Below, piece by piece: positions 1 through 27,031 of a stretch of DNA of 64,000 nt. Origin of the DNA: a virus. The position numbers and the translations under genes are program-made. Every line of letters begins with the position of its first letter. Positions within the stretch are counted from its first letter, which is position 1. The DNA lies in the IMG/VR virus record IMGVR_UViG_3300005739_000002, positions 1 to 64,000 of that record; one strand, written 5' to 3'. The notes beneath the pieces were generated by a model. It ran no database searches. It saw nothing but the letters and a program-made list of their open reading frames with translations, and was not told where the DNA came from.

Positions 1-59
1 CAGCGCCTCCAGCAGCGCCTCCAGCAGCGCCTCCAGCAGCGCCTCCAGCAGCGCCTCCA
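1..59 (+). repeat. 12-bp coding tandem repeat CCAGCAGCGCCT (Pro-Ala-Ala-Pro), about 5 copies, truncated by the window edge
   Basis: Directly visible perfect tandem repeat. Confidence 0.95.
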
Positions 60-323
60 TCCTGTTCACCTTTAGCTGGCGATGAGTGTTTCTGCGCTGG
101 CTGTTGCGGAGGTAGCGGTCGCCTAGCCAGAAGGAACTGTTCTGGAGGGTGCCCTTGTGGAACTTGTCCACCTTGTACTCCAACACCACCACCTCCACCA
201 CCACCTCCACCACCACCGCCAACAGGTGGCTCAACACCTCCAACCACGCCACCACCTTCTGGTGGATGTAATCCTGGGTGTCGAGATGCACGTGGACGTT
301 GTAGATGTTCTGGAGGATTATAA
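1..323 (+). CDS. C-terminal fragment of a Pro-rich, Cys-rich protein (5' end lies outside the window; missed by ORF track)
   Basis: Frame starting at nt 3 is open to TAA 321-323: (APPA)n-SCSPLAGDECFCAGCCGGSGRLARRNCSGGCPCGTCPPCTPT-polyP-TGGSTPPTTPPPSGGCNPGCRDARGRCRCSGGL; 14 Cys. Confidence 0.85.
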   Translation, partial: APPAAPPAAPPAAPPAAPPSCSPLAGDECFCAGCCGGSGRLARRNCSGGCPCGTCPPCTPTPPPPPPPPPPPPTGGSTPPTTPPPSGGCNPGCRDARGRCRCSGGL

Positions 324-347
324 AATCAACTATGATAGGATATATAA

Positions 348-653
348 ATGGATAATGACCTACCACAAGGCAGTGATTTAGCGCAAGCAACTCATAAGTT
401 TGCCTTTATCGTAGACGGAGATGTATTTGGGGTTGTTTCTTTAGATATAAGAAATCCTTTTGATGTCAATGATGTAGAAAAACGTTGCATAGCAGGATTA
501 TCTTCTGACCCTAAAGTCATACCTATAGAAGTGAATAGTCCTGTGGTATTTGGGTGGACCTATGATGCTGAAAAAAACGCCTTTTATCCTCCAGTCACTC
601 CTCTTCCTCCTGTAGAGTTCACACCTCTACCAGAACAGGACGTGATTGAATGA
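348..653 (+). CDS. hypothetical protein, resembles small fibre-associated/chaperone proteins
   Basis: FAFIVDGDV...GWTYD...FYPP pattern typical of small genes that follow phage fibre genes. Confidence 0.5.
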   Translation: MDNDLPQGSDLAQATHKFAFIVDGDVFGVVSLDIRNPFDVNDVEKRCIAGLSSDPKVIPIEVNSPVVFGWTYDAEKNAFYPPVTPLPPVEFTPLPEQDVIE

Positions 654-916
654 GCGAAGAAAAGCCTGTAAACGCTTGGCAAGCGTGGAAAAAGAACCTT
701 GGTGAATCCAGACCTTGGCATTTATTTGACCCAGTTCAAAGAGTGTCAGAGGATTTAGCAGCTAAAAGATACGACCTTTGCAAAGGCTGTGAGCACTTTA
801 TCAAGGCAACTACGCAGTGCACTAAGTGCGGTTGTATTATGAAGGCTAAAACTTTGTTAAAGAATGCGGAGTGTCCAATAGGAAAATGGGGACAAGACCT
901 GACACCATCTTTGTAA
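650..916 (+). CDS. small Cys-rich metal-binding protein (DUF6171-like)
   Basis: RYDLCKGC...QCTKCGCIM..K......CPIGKW motif. Confidence 0.65.
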   Translation: MSEEKPVNAWQAWKKNLGESRPWHLFDPVQRVSEDLAAKRYDLCKGCEHFIKATTQCTKCGCIMKAKTLLKNAECPIGKWGQDLTPSL

Positions 917-1827
917 CAATTGCTTGTTATAGGGACCCCGTTATCCAATCTACTATAGACGACCTATTATCTAAAGCAGATAACCCCTATAGAATAACTG
1001 TAGGGGTATTTCTGCAGCAAAAATCACACGAAAACCTTATTACTGAAACCTATGGTAATAGGGTAAGAGTAGACGTCCAAGAACCTGGAAAAATATTTAG
1101 TGTGACCGCCTGTAGAAATAGAGCCGTGTGTCTTATAGATGACGAAGATTATGTCTTACAGATAGATTCTCACACCAGGTTTGACCGTGGTTGGGATACA
1201 AAACTACTTAATTTGCATAAATCTTTAAACAATAAAAAAGCGTTATTAAGTATTTATTTACCAGATTGGTATTATGCAGAAGGTAGAGTAGAAGCCTTTA
1301 CAATAAGAAGTGATGAGTTTGCTAGTTTTTCATTTAACACACAAAAAAGTGAAGAAGTTTTTTATGAGTTTAACGAACTTGTTCCTATGCCTGTTGACAG
1401 CTTGCTTGCAAATGGCAAAAAAACATTATTAAGTTGGTATTTGTGTGGGCATTTTATATTTGGACCACGTGACTTTTTTACTAAAATCCCTCAACCAGAG
1501 TGGGTTGGGTTTTGGGGTGAAGAGGTGATAAATAGCGTAAGAGCGTATACGGCAGGGTGGGATGTATACAACCCAGCAAATCCGCCTTTATACCATTTAA
1601 ACGAAGGACGTAGCGTTAATTGGTCTAGACAAAAACTGTGGAACGATTATCCTGCCGAACATGTGGCAAAAAGAGAATCTACTACCTACAGAATTATAAA
1701 CACAATATATAACAATACTGTAGGTGAGGAAGACCTTTTTGATGTTAGGCCATTAAAAGGTTTGTATGACATAATTGGCTACAACCTTGGCGAACTATTC
1801 TATGGATGGTATAAAAATGGAAATTGA
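886..1827 (+). CDS. GlcNAc transferase, Skp1-hydroxyproline GlcNAc-transferase (Gnt1/GT60)-like, GT-A fold
   Basis: TIFVTIACYRDP, LQIDSHTRFDRGWD (DxH), GHFIF, FWGEE, RAYTAGWDVYNP..LYH motifs; ATG at 886 preferred. Confidence 0.8.
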   Translation: MGTRPDTIFVTIACYRDPVIQSTIDDLLSKADNPYRITVGVFLQQKSHENLITETYGNRVRVDVQEPGKIFSVTACRNRAVCLIDDEDYVLQIDSHTRFDRGWDTKLLNLHKSLNNKKALLSIYLPDWYYAEGRVEAFTIRSDEFASFSFNTQKSEEVFYEFNELVPMPVDSLLANGKKTLLSWYLCGHFIFGPRDFFTKIPQPEWVGFWGEEVINSVRAYTAGWDVYNPANPPLYHLNEGRSVNWSRQKLWNDYPAEHVAKRESTTYRIINTIYNNTVGEEDLFDVRPLKGLYDIIGYNLGELFYGWYKNGN

Positions 1828-2533
1828 GTTTTATCACGTATTTCCTAAAGGAAAAAGGTTACCGATAGAGCAAAGCCCTGTAGACAGGGAGTGGATGAAT
1901 CAGCTAATTGAATCCTATGCCTATAGGTGTCTTCCTATGACATACGCATCCCGACATGGGTGGTGCATTCGTGCGCCAGAAGATATACAGGTTGTGTGGA
2001 ACGGGGGATACGAAGCCAAGTCAACTACTTTTATCTGTGGAACATCCAATTTTGCTAATGGTGGAACTGGTAATGGTGTCGTAACCTTTCATTTAAACGC
2101 TATACCTAGAACATCTCCAGAATGGAACCTATGGTTTATGGGAGCGCCTAACCTAGTAATACCTGGCGCTACCCCTTTATCTGGAATAGTTGAGAGCGAC
2201 TGGATATACATATCTCCAACCATGAATTGGAAAATTACCGAGGTTAACAAGGTGGTCACTTTTAAAAAAGGAGACCCCGTTCTATTTTTTATACCAATAC
2301 ACAAAACCCAATTGGAAGAATTTAAGCTAATACATAAAGATATTCAGGATGACCCTGAGATAGCCCGTCATTACGAGGAGTTCCAGGCCTATAGACAAAA
2401 AAACGATGCCGAAGGTAAGAGCTCATTTACAAGAGATTACTTAAGAGGCGTCAGGTATGACAAAACTAAGCCTGACCACCCCTACCACCATAAGACCAAA
2501 CTAAACCTGCATGCCCCCAATCCAAATGAGTAG
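1817..2533 (+). CDS. DUF6065-like protein
   Basis: AYRCLPM..A..HGW, G.G.VTFH, G.PN....GATPLSGIVESDW, MNWKIT, VTFKKGDP motifs. Confidence 0.7.
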   Translation: MEIEFYHVFPKGKRLPIEQSPVDREWMNQLIESYAYRCLPMTYASRHGWCIRAPEDIQVVWNGGYEAKSTTFICGTSNFANGGTGNGVVTFHLNAIPRTSPEWNLWFMGAPNLVIPGATPLSGIVESDWIYISPTMNWKITEVNKVVTFKKGDPVLFFIPIHKTQLEEFKLIHKDIQDDPEIARHYEEFQAYRQKNDAEGKSSFTRDYLRGVRYDKTKPDHPYHHKTKLNLHAPNPNE

Positions 2534-2621: not shown

Positions 2622-3593
2622 ATGTCAGTAGACTCTTCAGGTCGACAGGCAGTCGATTTTGTATGGGGCAACATGCCCATGCACCCAAACGACGACCGTG
2701 CAGCGACCATTACAAACACAGGCGGTTCAACAGGCGACTACGGCTGGTCACAGACCACCAAAGTAGCCAGCGCTCGCCTAGATGCGGCACTTGATAACCA
2801 CGTAAATGTGGAATCAGGCTGGGCAGGTTATCCATCATTTCTAAAGGCAGCAGGTAACTACATTGTTACTTCAGCTGAAGGAAACGGAACAACTGTTACA
2901 TACACAGCTTTTAACTTCCTTGCCCCAGGCGATGTTGTAAATATCACTGGTCTTACAGCTTCTGCATACAATCTCTCAAGCGCAACTGTTGCCACAGCTA
3001 ACCAGCAGCGCTTTACAGTTACCAATGCAGCTAATGCAGGCCTTATTACAGGTCAGCGCGGCAAGGTAGAGAGCACAACCGCTCTAACAGCATACGACGG
3101 CGTAGGCAGTGGAAACATCATTGTTCCTAACGTACTAGGTACAACCACCGCATTTGCTGTTGACGCCCTTCGTGATGCAGGCTATGAATTGGCTAACATC
3201 ACCACAGCAGCTGGTGCTACTAACACACGCACCGACATCACCCGCTTCAACGCTACCAGCGCTACTGCGGCTGTTGTTTACGCGACTAGCGCACACACCA
3301 ATTACCCAACAGGTACTAAGATTACAATCGTTGCAGGAACTCCAGCTGGCGAAAGCCCAGTTAACCTTCCAGCATACGCACTTGGCACTTGGACCGTCAC
3401 AGGCTCTGCAGGCGCAGGTCAGATTACAATCTCTGGCTCAGGCTTCACAGTAGCCGATACGACTGGGGTAAATGCTACTGGAACTCTCGGTGGAGCCAAC
3501 GGCACCATCAGAACCCAGAGCACTGCAGCTAACGCTGCTGGTGTTGCTACAACTGCAACCATTACTATCACCCCATGGGCTAACGCTTCTTAA
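2622..3593 (+). CDS. Thr/Ala-rich putative virion surface protein with a PASTA-like domain interrupted by a beta-rich insert
   Basis: IVPNVLG.T...AVDALRDAGY (PASTA N-half) and GTIRTQS.AA (PASTA C-half); highly-expressed codon style. Confidence 0.55.
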   Translation: MSVDSSGRQAVDFVWGNMPMHPNDDRAATITNTGGSTGDYGWSQTTKVASARLDAALDNHVNVESGWAGYPSFLKAAGNYIVTSAEGNGTTVTYTAFNFLAPGDVVNITGLTASAYNLSSATVATANQQRFTVTNAANAGLITGQRGKVESTTALTAYDGVGSGNIIVPNVLGTTTAFAVDALRDAGYELANITTAAGATNTRTDITRFNATSATAAVVYATSAHTNYPTGTKITIVAGTPAGESPVNLPAYALGTWTVTGSAGAGQITISGSGFTVADTTGVNATGTLGGANGTIRTQSTAANAAGVATTATITITPWANAS

Positions 3594-3650: not shown

Positions 3651-4199
3651 TTATATTGTCGGGAACTCCTTATAGAAGTTCTCGAATCTTTCTCCGTTAA
3701 TCTGGTTTGGATACACTTTCCAGGAAGACCAGTCTTTTCCACCGTTAGTCATGTGAAACGCTATCTGAGCGTTTCTTACGGGGTCAAAGAGTTCCTTGTT
3801 ATTTAGTAGGTTAAATTTTTCTCGCCTATCAATACCCAGGTCACCTAACATGTTGATTTGGAAGATTCCATAAGAGTCATCTCCCGTGCCGATATCGTCG
3901 TTGTGGGCTTTAGGACGGCCGTTGGATTCTTTCATCGCAACAGCCCAAGCAGTCCTGAGGGCCTTTCCCTCAAATCCAACTGCTTGAAGCAATTCTTTCA
4001 GCTCTACCTTGTCTAAGGACTTAGCGTCTCTGAAATCAGCTAGCGGGTCTTTTGGCGCTTCAACAGTGACTGTAGCTCCGTCTGTGGTTTGGTCTGCCCA
4101 TGCATTTACAGCAAAGGGAGCCCCACCAATTAGGAGTACGTACACTGCCATTACAGCAATTACCTCTAGCTTGGTTTGCTCTTTTCTGATATTAAGCAT
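3651..4199 (-). CDS. secreted/membrane-anchored lysozyme-like lytic transglycosylase (SLT/Rpf-like)
   Basis: N-terminal hydrophobic segment; AMKESNG (catalytic Glu), DSYGIFQIN, FDPVRNA, DWSSW; SD GAGGAG before ATG 4199; only minus-strand gene. Confidence 0.8.
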   Translation of the reverse strand: MLNIRKEQTKLEVIAVMAVYVLLIGGAPFAVNAWADQTTDGATVTVEAPKDPLADFRDAKSLDKVELKELLQAVGFEGKALRTAWAVAMKESNGRPKAHNDDIGTGDDSYGIFQINMLGDLGIDRREKFNLLNNKELFDPVRNAQIAFHMTNGGKDWSSWKVYPNQINGERFENFYKEFPTI

Positions 4200-4418
4200 T
4201 TTATTGCTCCTCTCAGTAGTGGCAAAAGGCTCCATTGCTGGAGCCTTTCAGGTATTAGACTGCCACAGTGTTACAGCCAAGGTCAAGTTCAAATAAATAT
4301 ATTTTTTATACTGTGACAAAATCGTTATTTTAGTATGTACTATACATACGTATTTCCGCATTTTATTTGCGTATCGGACAAAACATATCTATAATCTATA
4401 TTAGAAAGAAGTTTAGAT

Positions 4419-14304: not shown

Positions 14305-17109
14305 ATGCCAGATATTATTATAGTTCCACCCGATAGCGGTAATTGGTACCCACAACCTACAGGTCCTACTGGACCACTTAATGGTCCAACTGGCCCAACT
14401 GGTCCAACTGGCCCCACAGGTCCTCAAGGAGATTACTCTCGTTATCTTGGAATCTTTGACACTCTTGCAGACCTACAAACAGCTCACCCAAGTCCAGTAC
14501 CAACTAACTGGGCATTCGTACGTGTAGCAGGTAGCGCAACCACATTAAGACTTTATCGTCGTAGTAATAACGCATGGGTATTTGACACTTTAACTTTACC
14601 TACAGGAGCTACGGGAGCTACTGGTCCTACAGGACGTACAGGAGCAACAGGCCCACAAGGAAATCAAGGAGCGGCAGGACCTGCTGGTCCTACTGGTGCT
14701 CAAGGTGTTTCAGGTATTGCTGGTGCAACTGGTCCTACAGGTGCTCCTGGTCAAGGTTTAAATATTCTTGGTGAATACCCAACGCTTGTCGCATTACAAA
14801 CAGCAAGACCAACTGGCAATCCTGGTGAGGCCTATCTCCTTGCTAACGGTAATTTAATAATTTGGAATACAGTAACATCTGAATGGACTAACGTTGGTAA
14901 CTTAGAAGGACCTACAGGTCCTGCTGGTGTTGCTGGTCCTGCAGGTGCAACTGGTCCTCGTGGTGTTCAAGGTTTTCAAGGTGCACAGGGACCACAAGGA
15001 GATACTGGTCCTACTGGACCAACGGGCCCTACTGGTTTAGCTGGACCCCAAGGTCCTACTGGACCGCAAGGTGCACAAGGCTTTTCTGGTCTTCAAGGAA
15101 ACACTGGTCCAATAGGTCCAACTGGTGCAACGGGTCCTACTGGTGCACGGGGTCAAGGTTTTGCTGGAATAAACTCTGTATCTGCAATAAGTTTAGGTCT
15201 TGGATTAAAAACATTTACTTTAAACATTTCTGACCACCCATTTATAGTTAACTCTATTATTAGAGCAGTAGCTAACGATAATGTATTTTTAGATGGACTT
15301 GTTAAAACTGTAAACGGCGCCCAAATAACTGTAGAAGTAGAAAACTTTACAGGTGCTGCAGCAGGCGCAATCTTTAATAACTGGCTATTTACCGTTACTG
15401 GTGAACCAGGCTTTACTGGTGATACTGGTCCAATAGGACCTACTGGACCAACTGGAGCTGCTTCTACAGTACCTGGACCTACTGGTCCTACGGGTGTATC
15501 TGGTGGTATTGACCTTACTATAACCAGAAGCGGTAGTACTTATGTAATTAATGGATTAACAAATCCTAATATTACAGTTATTCGCGGACTTCGTTACCGT
15601 CTTGATATAACAACTCCAGGTTACACATTTAGGTTACAAACAACCGCAGGTGCTTACAATGCGGGGTCTCAATATACCTCTGGTCTAAGCGCTAACCTTG
15701 TAACAGGCTTAGCAAATGGAACTGGTTTCTGGGATGTTCCATTCACTGGTCCTGCAACTTTATATTTTGTTTCAGAAGAAGATTCTGCACTTAACGGCTC
15801 ATTTACAGTAACTGCTGCTGGACCTATTGGACCAACTGGTCCAACTGGTGCAACAGGTGCCGCATCTACTGTAACAGGTCCAACTGGTGCAACAGGTGCA
15901 ACTGGTCCACAAGGTATTCAAGGTCCTACAGGTCCTCAAGGTAATCAAGGTATTGCGGGTGCTCCTGGTGTTCAAGGAGCTACAGGTCCTCAAGGACCGC
16001 AAGGTATTCAAGGTGCAGCTGGTACGCCTGGTGCTGCTGGTGCTGCTGGTGTTACTGGTCCTACAGGTGCGACTGGTGCGACTGGTCCAGAGGGCGCTGG
16101 AATATTTATTCTTGGTTCGTACAACTCACTAGCAGAACTTCAAGCTGCACAACCTGTTGGTGCAATTGGTGACGGATATCTTGTAAATGGTGTTCTATTT
16201 GTATGGGCTGGTTCTCAATGGGCTAGCGCTGGAGCAATTCAAGGTCCAACTGGAGCACAGGGTCCACAAGGTATTCAAGGTTTATTGGGACCAACAGGTC
16301 CACAAGGTGACACTGGTCCGCAAGGTATTCAAGGCGTTGTTGGTCCTGTTGGCCCAACGGGTGCAACTGGTCCTGTATCAACTGTTCCTGGCCCTACTGG
16401 TCCACAAGGTATTCAAGGTGTAACAGGTCCGCAAGGTCCGCTTGGACCAACAGGTCCTCAAGGCCGTGGCCTAAATATTTTAAATGCGTTTAGCACATTC
16501 CAAGAACTTATTGCTGCTGTTCCTTCTCCTGTAACTGGTGACCCATACCTTGTAGCTGGAAACCTATTTATTTGGGATGGCGACCAGTGGATTAACGCGG
16601 GCGCTGTTCAAGGACCTACTGGTGCAACTGGACCGCAGGGTCCATTAGGACCTACGGGTGCACAAGGAAATTCAATTACAGGACCTACGGGTGCGACTGG
16701 TGCTACTGGTCCACAACCATTTACTATTGTAGGAACTTGGCAATCAGGAATTTCGTACAGTCCTGGACAAGCAGTTTTTTATGACACTCCTACATTAAAA
16801 GGTACGTATCTTCGTAGAAACAACAACTCTACGCCAGGAATAACTCCTCCAGAAGATACCGCAAACTGGTTAATTATTGTTGCTGCAGCAATAGGTAATA
16901 CTGGTCCTACTGGAGCCACAGGCCCTACGGGTGCTCAAGGTATTCAGGGTATTCAGGGCTTACTTGGACCTACAGGTCCACAGGGTAATCAAGGTTTACT
17001 AGGTCCAACAGGCCCTACAGGCACTACACTACTTAACGTAGATGGTGGTAGCCCTGTAAGTAATTACGGTGCAGTTATCAACATTGACAGCGGAGGAGTG
17101 GTTCAGTAA
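14305..17109 (+). CDS. collagen-like fibre protein with repeated globular interruptions
   Basis: Extensive Gly-X-Y (GPT/GAT/GPQ) runs; four related ILG.Y..L..LQ.A.P...GD.YLV.G.L..W...W...G modules. Confidence 0.9.
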
Positions 17110-17522
17110 TGCCAATTAAGATTCAATTACGCCGTGGCACGGCTAGCGAATGGTCAACTGCTAATCCAGTTCTCTCAGAAGGTGAACTAGGTCTTGAGTT
17201 AGACACTGGAAAGTTTAAGGTTGGCAACGGTACTGGTGCTTGGAATACGCTAGTATATGCATCTGGTATTCAAGGACCAACAGGGCCGCAAGGTGTCGCA
17301 GGTGCCGCTGGACCAGCAGGTGCTAACGGAGCAGCAGGTGCTCCAGGACCAACTGGTGAGCGCGGGCCGACAGGTATCCAAGGACCTGCTGGTGATGGTG
17401 GAGTAGGCCAACTACTTCTTAACGACGCACTACTTCAAACTGGTATTTATTTTCCAGTTGGAGCTGTTACTAGATTTACTAACGTGGTACAAACCGTGAT
17501 ACCACCGATTACGTTAATATAG
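17109..17522 (+). CDS. fibre protein with Mtd/hyaluronidase N-terminal domain and short collagen
   Basis: IQLRRGTASEW...NPVLSEGELGLELDTGKFKVGNG. Confidence 0.8.
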   Translation: MPIKIQLRRGTASEWSTANPVLSEGELGLELDTGKFKVGNGTGAWNTLVYASGIQGPTGPQGVAGAAGPAGANGAAGAPGPTGERGPTGIQGPAGDGGVGQLLLNDALLQTGIYFPVGAVTRFTNVVQTVIPPITLI

Positions 17523-25972: not shown

Positions 25973-27031
25973 ATGAAAATAGCCGTATACACCATCGCAT
26001 TAAATGAGGAACAGTTTGTAGAACGCTGGTATGAATCAGCTAAAGAAGCTGACTACCTGATGATTGCTGACACAGGCTCTGTTGATGAGACTGTGAGTAA
26101 GGCTGAAGCCCTAGGAATTGTGTGCCACAAAATTAGTGTGCGTCCGTGGCGGTTTGATGATGCCCGTAACGCAGCGCTCGCCCTATTGCCAGATGACATT
26201 GACTACTGCATCTCTTTAGATATGGATGAGATACTCGCCCCAGGCTGGCGCGATGAAATGGAAAAGATTCCTGTTGGGTCTACTCGTATACGCTACAACT
26301 ATACATGGAACTTCCAACCAGACGGCTCTCCAGGTCTAACATTTGCTGGAGACAAGATTCATGCACGCCACGGGTACCGTTGGCAACATCCTGTACATGA
26401 ATGTTTATATACAGATAGGCTTGTAGAAAAAGAATATTGGTCTCAACTAGGGCTGTGGCATAAAGCTGACGACCAAAAATCTCGTGGGCAGTATCTACCC
26501 TTACTTAAATTATCTGTAGAAGAAGACCCTACGAATGACCGTAATGCGTATTACTATGCTCGTGAACTATTTTTCCACGGGCAGTATGAAGAGGCCCTTG
26601 TGCAATTTAAACGCCACCTGTCTTTACCTAAAGCTGTGTGGAAAGCCGAACGTGCTTCTTCTATGAGATATATAGCTAAGTGTTCTACTGAGGAATCTGA
26701 AAAACTTAAATGGTGGAAATTAGCTGTACAAGAAGAACCAGCTAAACGTGAAGCTTACGTTGAGTTGGCGCAATACCACTATGACAAAGGTAGATTTGAA
26801 GAGTGCTATATGTGGGCTAAGAAGGCAGTTAATATTAAAAACAAAAGCATGGACTATTTAAATGAAGCCTTTGCTTGGGGCGCTACTCCTTACGACCTAG
26901 CTGCTGTATGTGCATACTGGCTAGGAGAGCGAGAAAAAGCGCTTGAATATGGAACTATGGCTGCAGAGTTAAGCCCTACAGATGAGCGAATACTGGGTAA
27001 CCTAGAGTTCTACAAGCAGGGAGTTAAATGA
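25973..27031 (+). CDS. GT2 glycosyltransferase with C-terminal TPR repeats (leaderless)
   Basis: IALNEE, DTGSVD, WRFDDARN, SLDMDE, VHE motifs; TPR helices; TATAAT 6 nt before ATG. Confidence 0.88.
   Translation: MKIAVYTIALNEEQFVERWYESAKEADYLMIADTGSVDETVSKAEALGIVCHKISVRPWRFDDARNAALALLPDDIDYCISLDMDEILAPGWRDEMEKIPVGSTRIRYNYTWNFQPDGSPGLTFAGDKIHARHGYRWQHPVHECLYTDRLVEKEYWSQLGLWHKADDQKSRGQYLPLLKLSVEEDPTNDRNAYYYARELFFHGQYEEALVQFKRHLSLPKAVWKAERASSMRYIAKCSTEESEKLKWWKLAVQEEPAKREAYVELAQYHYDKGRFEECYMWAKKAVNIKNKSMDYLNEAFAWGATPYDLAAVCAYWLGEREKALEYGTMAAELSPTDERILGNLEFYKQGVK

Follow-up and report, generated by a model that had tools for sequence, protein, structure and literature searches.

The stretch analysed here, called the window, comprises the first 64 kb of IMG/VR record IMGVR_UViG_3300005739_000002, a 98,018 bp viral record that we refer to as G000, and it opens with the 3' end of a gene for a protein rich in proline and cysteine (the Pro/Cys protein), behind which lie four tightly packed genes that include a glycosyltransferase of family GT60. 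Neighbours among these four overlap by 4 nucleotides (653/650), 31 nucleotides (916/886) and 11 nucleotides (1827/1817). The open reading frames (ORFs) of this cassette are:

1–323, plus strand: fn3 / poly-Pro / Cys-rich protein, 3' end (106 codons); the ORF spans the 55-bp end repeat of the record
348–653, plus strand: small ORF of 101 residues between the Pro/Cys protein and DUF6171
650–916, plus strand: small Cys-rich DUF6171 protein of 88 residues (Pfam PF19668; phrog_13558)
886–1827, plus strand: GT60 / PF11397 glycosyltransferase of GT-A type with a DxH motif (QIDSH) (Pfam E-value 5.4e-38)
1817–2533, plus strand: DUF6065 protein of 238 residues, with a dUTPase / dCTP-deaminase-like fold in its predicted structure (Pfam PF19541, E-value 3.8e-58)

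A first-pass annotation, made from the letters of the window, had read a Pro/Cys-rich frame with PAAP repeats, a poly-Pro run and 14 Cys at the start of the window, and, behind it, a small chaperone-like ORF and DUF6171-like, Gnt1-like and DUF6065-like genes, several of them overlapping. Frame 3 is open over positions 3–323, where it encodes PAAP repeats, a run of 12 prolines (P12) and 14 Cys in 106 residues, the overlaps are as given above, and the DUF6171, Gnt1-like and DUF6065 calls are borne out by the Pfam and PHROGs matches given below; ORFs on the minus strand and in other frames over positions 1–390 were rejected as genes, being shadows of the repeat. The same annotation had placed the start of the Pro/Cys gene upstream of the window, and we found it at genome position 96535, across the record junction: the whole gene consists of genome positions 96535–98018 joined to window positions 56–323, and its product has 583 residues with 28 Cys and 80 Pro in total. 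The N-terminal half of this protein contains two fibronectin type III stretches (Pfam fn3, E-value 2e-15), after which come a P8 linker, a Cys-rich middle, PAAS/PAAP repeats, a dense Cys cluster, the P12 run, the sequence TGGSTPPTTPPPSGG and a last Cys cluster. The first and last 55 bases of G000 are identical, and this "direct terminal repeat" is itself part of a tandem repeat with a 12-bp unit, (CCAGCAGCGCCT)n, coding for PAAP (window 1–55, genome 97900–98018, the latter in L005); because the contig break falls within the tandem repeat, the number of PAAP repeats and the exact length of the protein are uncertain. The circular join is nevertheless plausible, since reading frame and synteny fit and since the related loci L007, L009 and L014 carry the same gene unbroken, with the same neighbours and a C-terminal Cys pattern (CRDxRGRC) that aligns. 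These loci belong to the set that we compared, namely 79 viral loci with DUF6065 and 80 with GT60, the latter out of at least 590 viral GT60 stretches. The Pro/Cys proteins at L017/L101:53–1654, L018:2460–4430 and L099:4304–6379 end in a module of ~130–150 residues that, judged by eye only, looks like an autoprocessing module of Hint/intein type (C-x-V-S-T...GD-x-V, with H-N/H-D near the end) and that is absent from the window's protein.

The product of 886–1827 (start likely at ATG 886, possibly at GTG 871) matched the PF11397 "GlcNAc" family with 131.8 bits against a cut-off of 21, and matched phrog_24687 (glycosyltransferase) in PHROGs. The motifs IACYRDP, QIDSH, FWGEE and GWDVY, on which the call of a Gnt1-like enzyme had been based, are all present in the translation. 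Our searches returned 45 homologues, every one with PF11397 and with lengths of 311–315 residues among them, and across 27 sequences D99 and H101 of QIDSH are invariant; a distant clade has GT60 forms of ~415 residues carrying a C-terminal extension that is not DUF6171-like. An AlphaFold2 model of the enzyme (predicted local distance difference test score, pLDDT, 94.3) has a GT-A fold, and its best Foldseek matches were GT27 polypeptide GalNAc-transferases (E-value 1.6e-11), at a sequence identity of just 12–15%, with the wall-teichoic-acid transferases TarP and RmlT among the lower-ranked matches. PDB sequence searches with the glycosyltransferase alone and with its profile matched no chain. 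Membership of PF11397 and the GT27 matches of the model together support an assignment of the window's enzyme to the polypeptide-HexNAc-transferase type. To our knowledge, all characterised GT60 enzymes glycosylate polypeptides, these being Gnt1 of Dictyostelium and Toxoplasma and the pp-alphaGlcNAc-transferases of Dictyostelium and Trypanosoma cruzi. Their acceptor sites are the hydroxyproline (Hyp) of Skp1 or Thr of mucin-like proteins. The GT27 enzymes likewise have a D-x-H motif, and their preferred sites are Thr/Ser residues that adjoin Pro. The phage enzyme thus shares its GT-A fold and D-S-H metal motif with the mucin-type GT27 and GT60 enzymes, GT27 providing the closest solved structures, and the Pro/Cys protein, with TGGSTPPTTPPPSGG and CTPTPPPP, resembles the acceptors of GT27; unlike the GT27 enzymes, the phage protein is cytoplasmic and has no lectin domain.

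The two small genes that precede the glycosyltransferase are conserved with it. The 101-residue ORF at 348–653 had no family match in Pfam or PHROGs, which leaves the chaperone-like label of the first-pass annotation without support, yet it is a real gene, since it is conserved in relatives: homologues with 63–76% identity occupy the same position in L007–L016, a hidden Markov model (HMM) of the small ORF found relatives directly 5' of DUF6171 in L024, L025, L096, L097, L108 and L133, and in L018–L022 the small ORF and DUF6171 are fused as one ORF. The Pfam match of the DUF6171 protein is borderline (PF19668, E-value 5.7e-6, 27.1 bits against a cut-off of 27), and its PHROGs match is to phrog_13558 (E-value 7.3e-15). 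Six Cys (C44, C47, C57, C60, C62 and C75) are invariant in 24 sequences, and as they are arranged as C-x2-C ... C-x2-C-x-C ... C-P-x-G-K-W this protein probably binds metal. A search for DUF6171 fusions returned only two 230-residue proteins without Pfam domains, and no fusion to a glycosyltransferase.

In a quick maximum-likelihood tree (IQ-TREE) the window's GT60 falls into a clade of 18 lineages on a long stem (SH-aLRT, the Shimodaira–Hasegawa-like approximate likelihood ratio test, 100). DUF6171 lies directly 5' of GT60 in 17 of these lineages and DUF6065 within 3 kb of it in 13, an arrangement kept while the identity of the glycosyltransferases drops to 37%. Every in-clade locus with sufficient 5' DNA encodes a Pro-rich and Cys-rich protein immediately upstream. 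The architectures of these upstream proteins differ strongly and are unrelated, and all of them pair poly-Pro with Cys clusters: those of L087, L091 and L092 have 195–295 residues with the order fn3, P7/P11, (xTPPP)8 and a C-terminal Cys cluster; those of L018, L025 and L099 have 525–692 residues, among which Cys number as many as 48 and Pro as many as 118; that of L098 has 392 residues, with fn3, and ends in (ASPPP)5 and a Cys knot; and the window's type stands beside these. ORFs of at least 150 residues with a run of at least 6 Pro numbered 24 in 0.44 Mb of in-clade loci versus 4 in the 1.40 Mb from the remaining viral loci, a count that overstates independence because the phages of the clade share ancestry and gene order (SLT, holin-like and terminase-side genes are common to them). 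Of the 4 ORFs outside the clade, the one in L133, a locus of a distant GT60 clade, is an independent replicate of the linkage. There, a 156-residue protein (L133:3108–3578) with P8, ~15 copies of IIATPPP and then a C-terminal Cys knot is followed by two small ORFs, DUF6171, three genes resembling prolyl 4-hydroxylases (P4Hs), a 192-residue ORF without known family and the distant GT60. The consistent linkage to Pro/Cys-rich genes, on which the first-pass annotation had made its proposal depend, therefore holds across the clade and in distant L133. From these comparisons we take the core of the system to be the small ORF, DUF6171 and GT60 behind a Pro/Cys-rich fibre-region protein, with P4H-type oxygenases and DUF6065 as frequent additions.

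The P4H-type genes tie this GT60 clade to peptide modification. In L087, L092, L094 and L096 a gene for a PF13640 2-oxoglutarate- and Fe(II)-dependent (2OG-Fe(II)) oxygenase of prolyl-hydroxylase type (187–206 residues) lies between GT60 and DUF6065, in L090 the order is GT60, P4H-type gene and lysozyme, and in L097 GT60 itself is a 498-residue protein with a C-terminal P4H domain (PF11397 and PF13640, E-value 6.6e-19); P0161 is another such fusion. The fusion in L097 (L097:6395–11309) is flanked by PF13640-type P4H genes of 192 residues upstream and 183 residues downstream, with two more downstream ORFs (200 and 234 residues) without Pfam family and no DUF6065 at the locus. No hydroxylase is present in the window's subclade or at the L101/L102, L018/L099, L025 and L098 loci, so that five of the eight lineages, the window's included, have the cassette without a P4H. 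The first-pass annotation had seen no prolyl hydroxylase in the window, and the same is true of the complete genome, in which five 2OG-Fe(II) oxygenase families (PF13640, PF03171, PF13661, PF13759 and PF05721) had no match at E ≤ 1–10 and in whose six frames a custom HMM of the sister-phage P4Hs had none either. As the genome encodes no 2OG oxygenase of the families tested, Hyp-GlcNAc chemistry in this phage would need a host hydroxylase or an unrecognised one. The hydroxyproline glycosylation proposed from the letters of the window thus finds support for the sister phages, where the PF13640 gene is in the cassette or fused to GT60, and none in this phage.

The last gene of the cassette (ORF start at 1775 as an alternative to ATG 1817, at which most of 116 homologues start) scored 197.2 bits with PF19541, whose cut-off is 26.6 (196.9 bits when the genome was searched), and matched phrog_7084 in PHROGs. 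An alignment of 42 of the 116 homologues showed R37, C38, P40, E126, W129, N137, W138, R193, Y208, G211 and H225 to be invariant, and the protein carries GxVESDW, which resembles motif III of dUTPases. All Foldseek matches listed for its AlphaFold2 model (pLDDT 88.8), and the top 22 VIA-align matches, were dUTPases or dCTP deaminases, the best structural match having Z 9.7 and a root-mean-square deviation of 2.8 Å with 118 of 148 target residues aligned; as modelled, DUF6065 has a dUTPase/dCTP-deaminase fold and not an oxygenase fold. Sequence comparisons did not extend this relationship to the dUTPases proper. The five conserved dUTPase motifs together with a match to the PF00692 HMM were not found in DUF6065, an hhalign comparison with eight real phage dUTPases was not significant (probability 0.14), and the sole local alignment to them covered motif III (sGIVETDW in DUF6065, vGIIDsDY in the dUTPases). 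A PDB sequence search with the DUF6065 profile gave no match, and the ESM Atlas returned only unnamed viral clusters. We considered DUF6065 as a cryptic prolyl hydroxylase and rejected this, given its dUTPase fold, the lack of a His-x-Asp...His triad among the invariant columns, and its co-occurrence with P4H genes.

Distant DUF6065 proteins (~35% identity) occur without GT60 and adjoin PolB, DNA ligase, Mom, a real dUTPase, DNA methylase, a QueE-like radical SAM gene, a sulfotransferase or other glycosyltransferases; the occurrence of such members in DNA-replication and DNA-modification neighbourhoods indicates that DUF6065, an accessory factor in the first-pass annotation, is not a dedicated GT60 accessory. 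At L046:7001–10343, L052:6063–7639 and L055:2766–5668 (T4-like viral contigs) the distant DUF6065 gene stands between PolB and genes for an ATP-dependent DNA ligase and a Mom-family protein, beside a QueE-like radical SAM gene, or after dUTPase, DNA methylase and DUF1599-like genes, and in L056, L069 and L070 two divergent DUF6065 genes lie close together beside a split PolB. In L025 (5294–7786) two DUF6065 paralogues flank GT60, in the order DUF6171, DUF6065, GT60, DUF6065. A contig group with a 51%-identical DUF6065 has two paralogous 284-residue proteins, not GT60, ahead of it (L028:5290–6998), with a weak match to luciferase-like monooxygenases (E-value 5.6e-4), and in L026 a glycosyltransferase of Glyco_transf_7C type precedes DUF6065. 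The modelled fold suggests binding of a uridine nucleotide (UDP or a UDP-sugar), and the company that the family keeps in phage dioxygenase arrays suggests a peptide-directed step.

Taken together, we read the genes from 348 to 2533 as a phage cassette for protein O-glycosylation that modifies the Pro/Cys-rich fibre-region protein encoded beside it, here probably at Ser/Thr directly and not at hydroxyproline; we give this reading a probability of about 0.55. The acceptor would be the upstream protein with its fn3 domains, its poly-Pro and (S/T/A)PPP-type tracts and its Cys-rich knots, encoded in the fibre/lysis region of a myovirus of the actinobacteria-infecting type. Late in infection the glycosyltransferase, with a UDP-HexNAc donor and a metal bound by its DxH motif, would place the sugar on hydroxyls in the Pro-rich tracts, here probably those of Ser/Thr next to Pro in mucin-type fashion; a Ser/Thr acceptor is the simpler reading because the complete genome encodes no 2OG-Fe(II) oxygenase. 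In the sister phages with a P4H-type gene in the cassette, hydroxyproline is probably glycosylated too, or instead. DUF6171, with its six Cys, and the small ORF constantly accompany the glycosyltransferase and may form a metal-binding adaptor or recognition pair, and DUF6065, often but not always present, may add a further step, either the handling of uridine nucleotides or another modification of the same protein. The cassette fits a role in the tailoring of virion proteins, with a chemistry that in some phages consists of hydroxylation plus glycosylation.

The surroundings of the cassette bear on this reading. G000, the record of an uncultured lake phage, is rated 100% complete and was treated as circular; its G+C content is ~44%. 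Its tail genes (window 26–64 kb and loci L005 and L006) are of the contractile type, with sheath, gp19-type tube, baseplate J and gp25, and it also encodes WhiB, DNA polymerase A (PolA), RecA, DnaB, Hsp20 and a class II ribonucleotide reductase, as well as a terminase 54% identical to its counterpart in Streptomyces phage BRock. These genes mark it as a myovirus, and its host is probably a low-GC freshwater actinobacterium. On the 5' side of the cassette, across the junction, lie genes for a 771-residue PA14-domain protein, a holin-like protein and a CHAP endolysin, and a tail-fibre-like ORF of 264 residues; on the 3' side are a Thr/Ala/Gly-rich protein of 323 residues (p323), an SLT_3 lysozyme on the opposite strand, the large terminase and an SPP1-type portal. 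The first two genes on the 3' side are:

2622–3593, plus strand: p323, Thr/Ala/Gly-rich protein of 323 residues; a conserved neighbour of the cassette in close relatives; whether it belongs to the system is uncertain
3651–4235, minus strand: SLT_3 lysozyme-like protein with an N-terminal hydrophobic segment (Pfam SLT_3, E-value 2.5e-18)

For p323 we found no family match in Pfam or PHROGs; homologues with 51–86% identity occupy the same position in L007–L017 and L034, and it is probably another fibre or structural protein. The SLT_3 gene forms a conserved 3' boundary of the cassette, its position and strand being kept in L008–L025, L090, L091 and L092. Further along, the fibre block holds a 934-residue collagen-like protein (14305–17109) with nine Collagen stretches and GPT/GPQ triplets, together with a collagen-like ORF of 137 residues (collagen-like region 14305–17522), and it closes with a second glycosyltransferase gene (25973–27031) that encodes a GT2 N-terminal domain and TPR; the collagen-like protein and this GT2/TPR gene are a possible separate pair for fibre glycosylation.

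Several observations weigh against glycosylation of the Pro/Cys protein by this cassette. It is adjacency that assigns the acceptor and gene position that places the Pro/Cys protein in the virion. The sample behind the Pro/Cys linkage amounts to ~8 lineages and L133, these phages sharing ancestry and synteny as set out with the ORF counts, and poly-Pro linkers are common in the tail and lysis proteins of actinophages, which could inflate the association. DUF6065 is missing from L090 and L091, and L104 has its GT60 beside collagen-like genes with no adjacent Pro/Cys ORF or DUF6171, the sole DUF6171 lying ~7 kb off. For DUF6065, the neighbourhoods of the distant members make a nucleotide-directed role conceivable.

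Among the alternatives, the same cassette and acceptor could carry true Hyp-O-GlcNAc, the prolines being hydroxylated by a host enzyme or by an unrecognised phage protein before a Gnt1-like GT60 step. The PF13640 gene between GT60 and DUF6065 in sister lineages and the GT60–P4H fusions of L097 and P0161 speak for such chemistry, and the basal position of L097 in the quick tree suggests that the P4H linkage may be ancestral. We consider it improbable in this phage, in which neither the five oxygenase families nor the clade-specific P4H HMM found a match and for which DUF6065 provides no replacement hydroxylase; moreover, the five lineages that keep the cassette without a P4H show that the glycosyltransferase evidently works without a phage hydroxylase. 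A different virion protein might instead be the acceptor, be it the 934-residue collagen-like fibre, p323 or capsid and tail proteins as in glycosylated mycobacteriophages, with the Pro/Cys gene a mere syntenic neighbour. The nine Collagen stretches of the fibre are rich in Gly-Pro-Thr, and in BclA of Bacillus anthracis such GPT repeats carry O-linked sugar on Thr, which counts toward this possibility, as do the position of GT60 directly before the collagen-like genes in L104, the collagen-like gene four genes upstream in L087, L091 and L092, and the conservation of p323 beside the cassette. We hold another acceptor to be improbable too: the collagen-like gene of this phage is 12 kb off and has its own neighbouring GT2/TPR gene, the constant immediate neighbour of the cassette is the Pro/Cys ORF and not a collagen gene, and p323 is absent from L018–L025 and the L087 group.

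Alternatively, perhaps no protein is modified at all, the targets of GT60 and the dUTPase-fold DUF6065 being DNA or nucleotides, a nucleotide sugar or a polymer of the host cell wall; a block to superinfection and an aid to lysis are examples of what this might achieve. The fold of DUF6065 is that of uridine-nucleotide enzymes, its distant members sit in DNA replication and modification modules, and in L065 GT60 is two genes from a DUF6065 beside PolB; the lower-ranked structural matches to the teichoic-acid transferases TarP and RmlT and the lysozyme and lysis genes that flank the cassette count on the same side. A non-protein target nevertheless seems improbable to us, since the best structural matches of the glycosyltransferase are peptide transferases, since the same GT60 clade has P4H-type peptide hydroxylases as fusion partners or neighbours, and since the dUTPase HMM misses DUF6065, of which just the motif-III-like stretch aligns to real dUTPases. 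The complete genome, in addition, yielded no hydroxymethylase of thymidylate-synthase type and no match to the dUTPase family PF00692 at E ≤ 1. DNA glycosylation was considered and rated low, because the phage has no hydroxymethylase-type enzyme.

Within the reading of a cassette that glycosylates the Pro/Cys protein, a bolder proposal concerns DUF6065: its dUTPase fold, with the invariant Cys38, Glu126, Trp129, Arg193 and His225, might be the scaffold of a novel type of enzyme that modifies proteins or peptides, acting on Pro/Cys-rich fibre proteins with GT60 and, in sister phages, with P4H. In that case a phage appendage would receive from the cassette a composite modification like that of extensins or minicollagens, in which Cys knots cap rods of glycosylated poly-Pro. 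This we regard as doubtful; if true, a composite extensin-/minicollagen-like chemistry so far known only in eukaryotes would be found on the appendage of a bacteriophage.

Among the closest known parallels is the Skp1 pathway of Dictyostelium and Toxoplasma, in which the P4H PhyA and Gnt1 (CAZy GT60) act together. The window's glycosyltransferase belongs to the same Pfam family, PF11397, and sister phages pair or fuse it with a PF13640 P4H-type oxygenase; in contrast to that pathway, this genome has no P4H, a long fibre-region protein rich in Pro and Cys takes the place of Skp1 as the proposed acceptor, the extra partners (DUF6171, DUF6065 and the small ORF) have no counterpart there, and the cassette contains no chain-extending glycosyltransferases. 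Among phages, the nearest published remark concerns an array in Syn9, for which the authors, in their remarks on it, proposed secondary-metabolite synthesis and not virion modification (Iyer et al. 2010, PMC2938197). An hhalign comparison of the DUF6065 alignment with Syn9 gp43 gave a colinear match of 170 columns (E-value 0.0028) that aligns the Cys motif, the motif-III-like GI[VL][ED]xx[WY] and the following strand; the PF19541 HMM does not detect gp43, and we regard the relationship as likely but weak. As in the window, the Syn9 array places a dUTPase-fold protein with an invariant Cys alongside peptide-modifying enzymes downstream of phage fibre genes; unlike the window's cassette, it has halogenases and ten dioxygenases and no GT60 or DUF6171. 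In mycobacteriophages the targets of glycosylation are the capsid and the tail tube. The window resembles these phages in that a phage glycosyltransferase is predicted to glycosylate a structural protein of its own phage, in an actinobacterial host, and differs from them in glycosyltransferase family, in the type of acceptor (a Pro/Cys-rich fibre-region protein) and in accessory genes. The glycosylation of mycobacteriophage virions by phage glycosyltransferases is among the work cited in PMC11256854.

Virion glycosylation is known from few cultured phages, and the abundant phages that infect freshwater actinobacteria are not known to have it. Set against the known hydroxylation and glycosylation of Pro-rich structural proteins, the proposed system differs in its phage setting, in its new partner families and, in this genome, in the lack of the hydroxylase. 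The cassette is a compact and testable system of one glycosyltransferase, three small partners and an adjacent candidate substrate, and the lineages with and without a prolyl-hydroxylase-type gene offer a natural comparison of whether GT60 switches between Hyp and Ser/Thr. Two widespread families, DUF6065 and DUF6171, gain a functional neighbourhood and, in the case of DUF6065, a predicted fold. Should the Pro/Cys protein serve in receptor binding or as part of a fibre, sugars on it could bear on host range, on stability or on recognition by host defences. Our literature searches found no paper on DUF6065, on PF11397 in phages or on cassettes of this kind, and tblastn of 50,697 cultured-phage records, queried with two DUF6065 proteins, returned nothing; for GT60, tblastn against cultured phages found two Xanthomonas jumbo phages only, at 26% identity.

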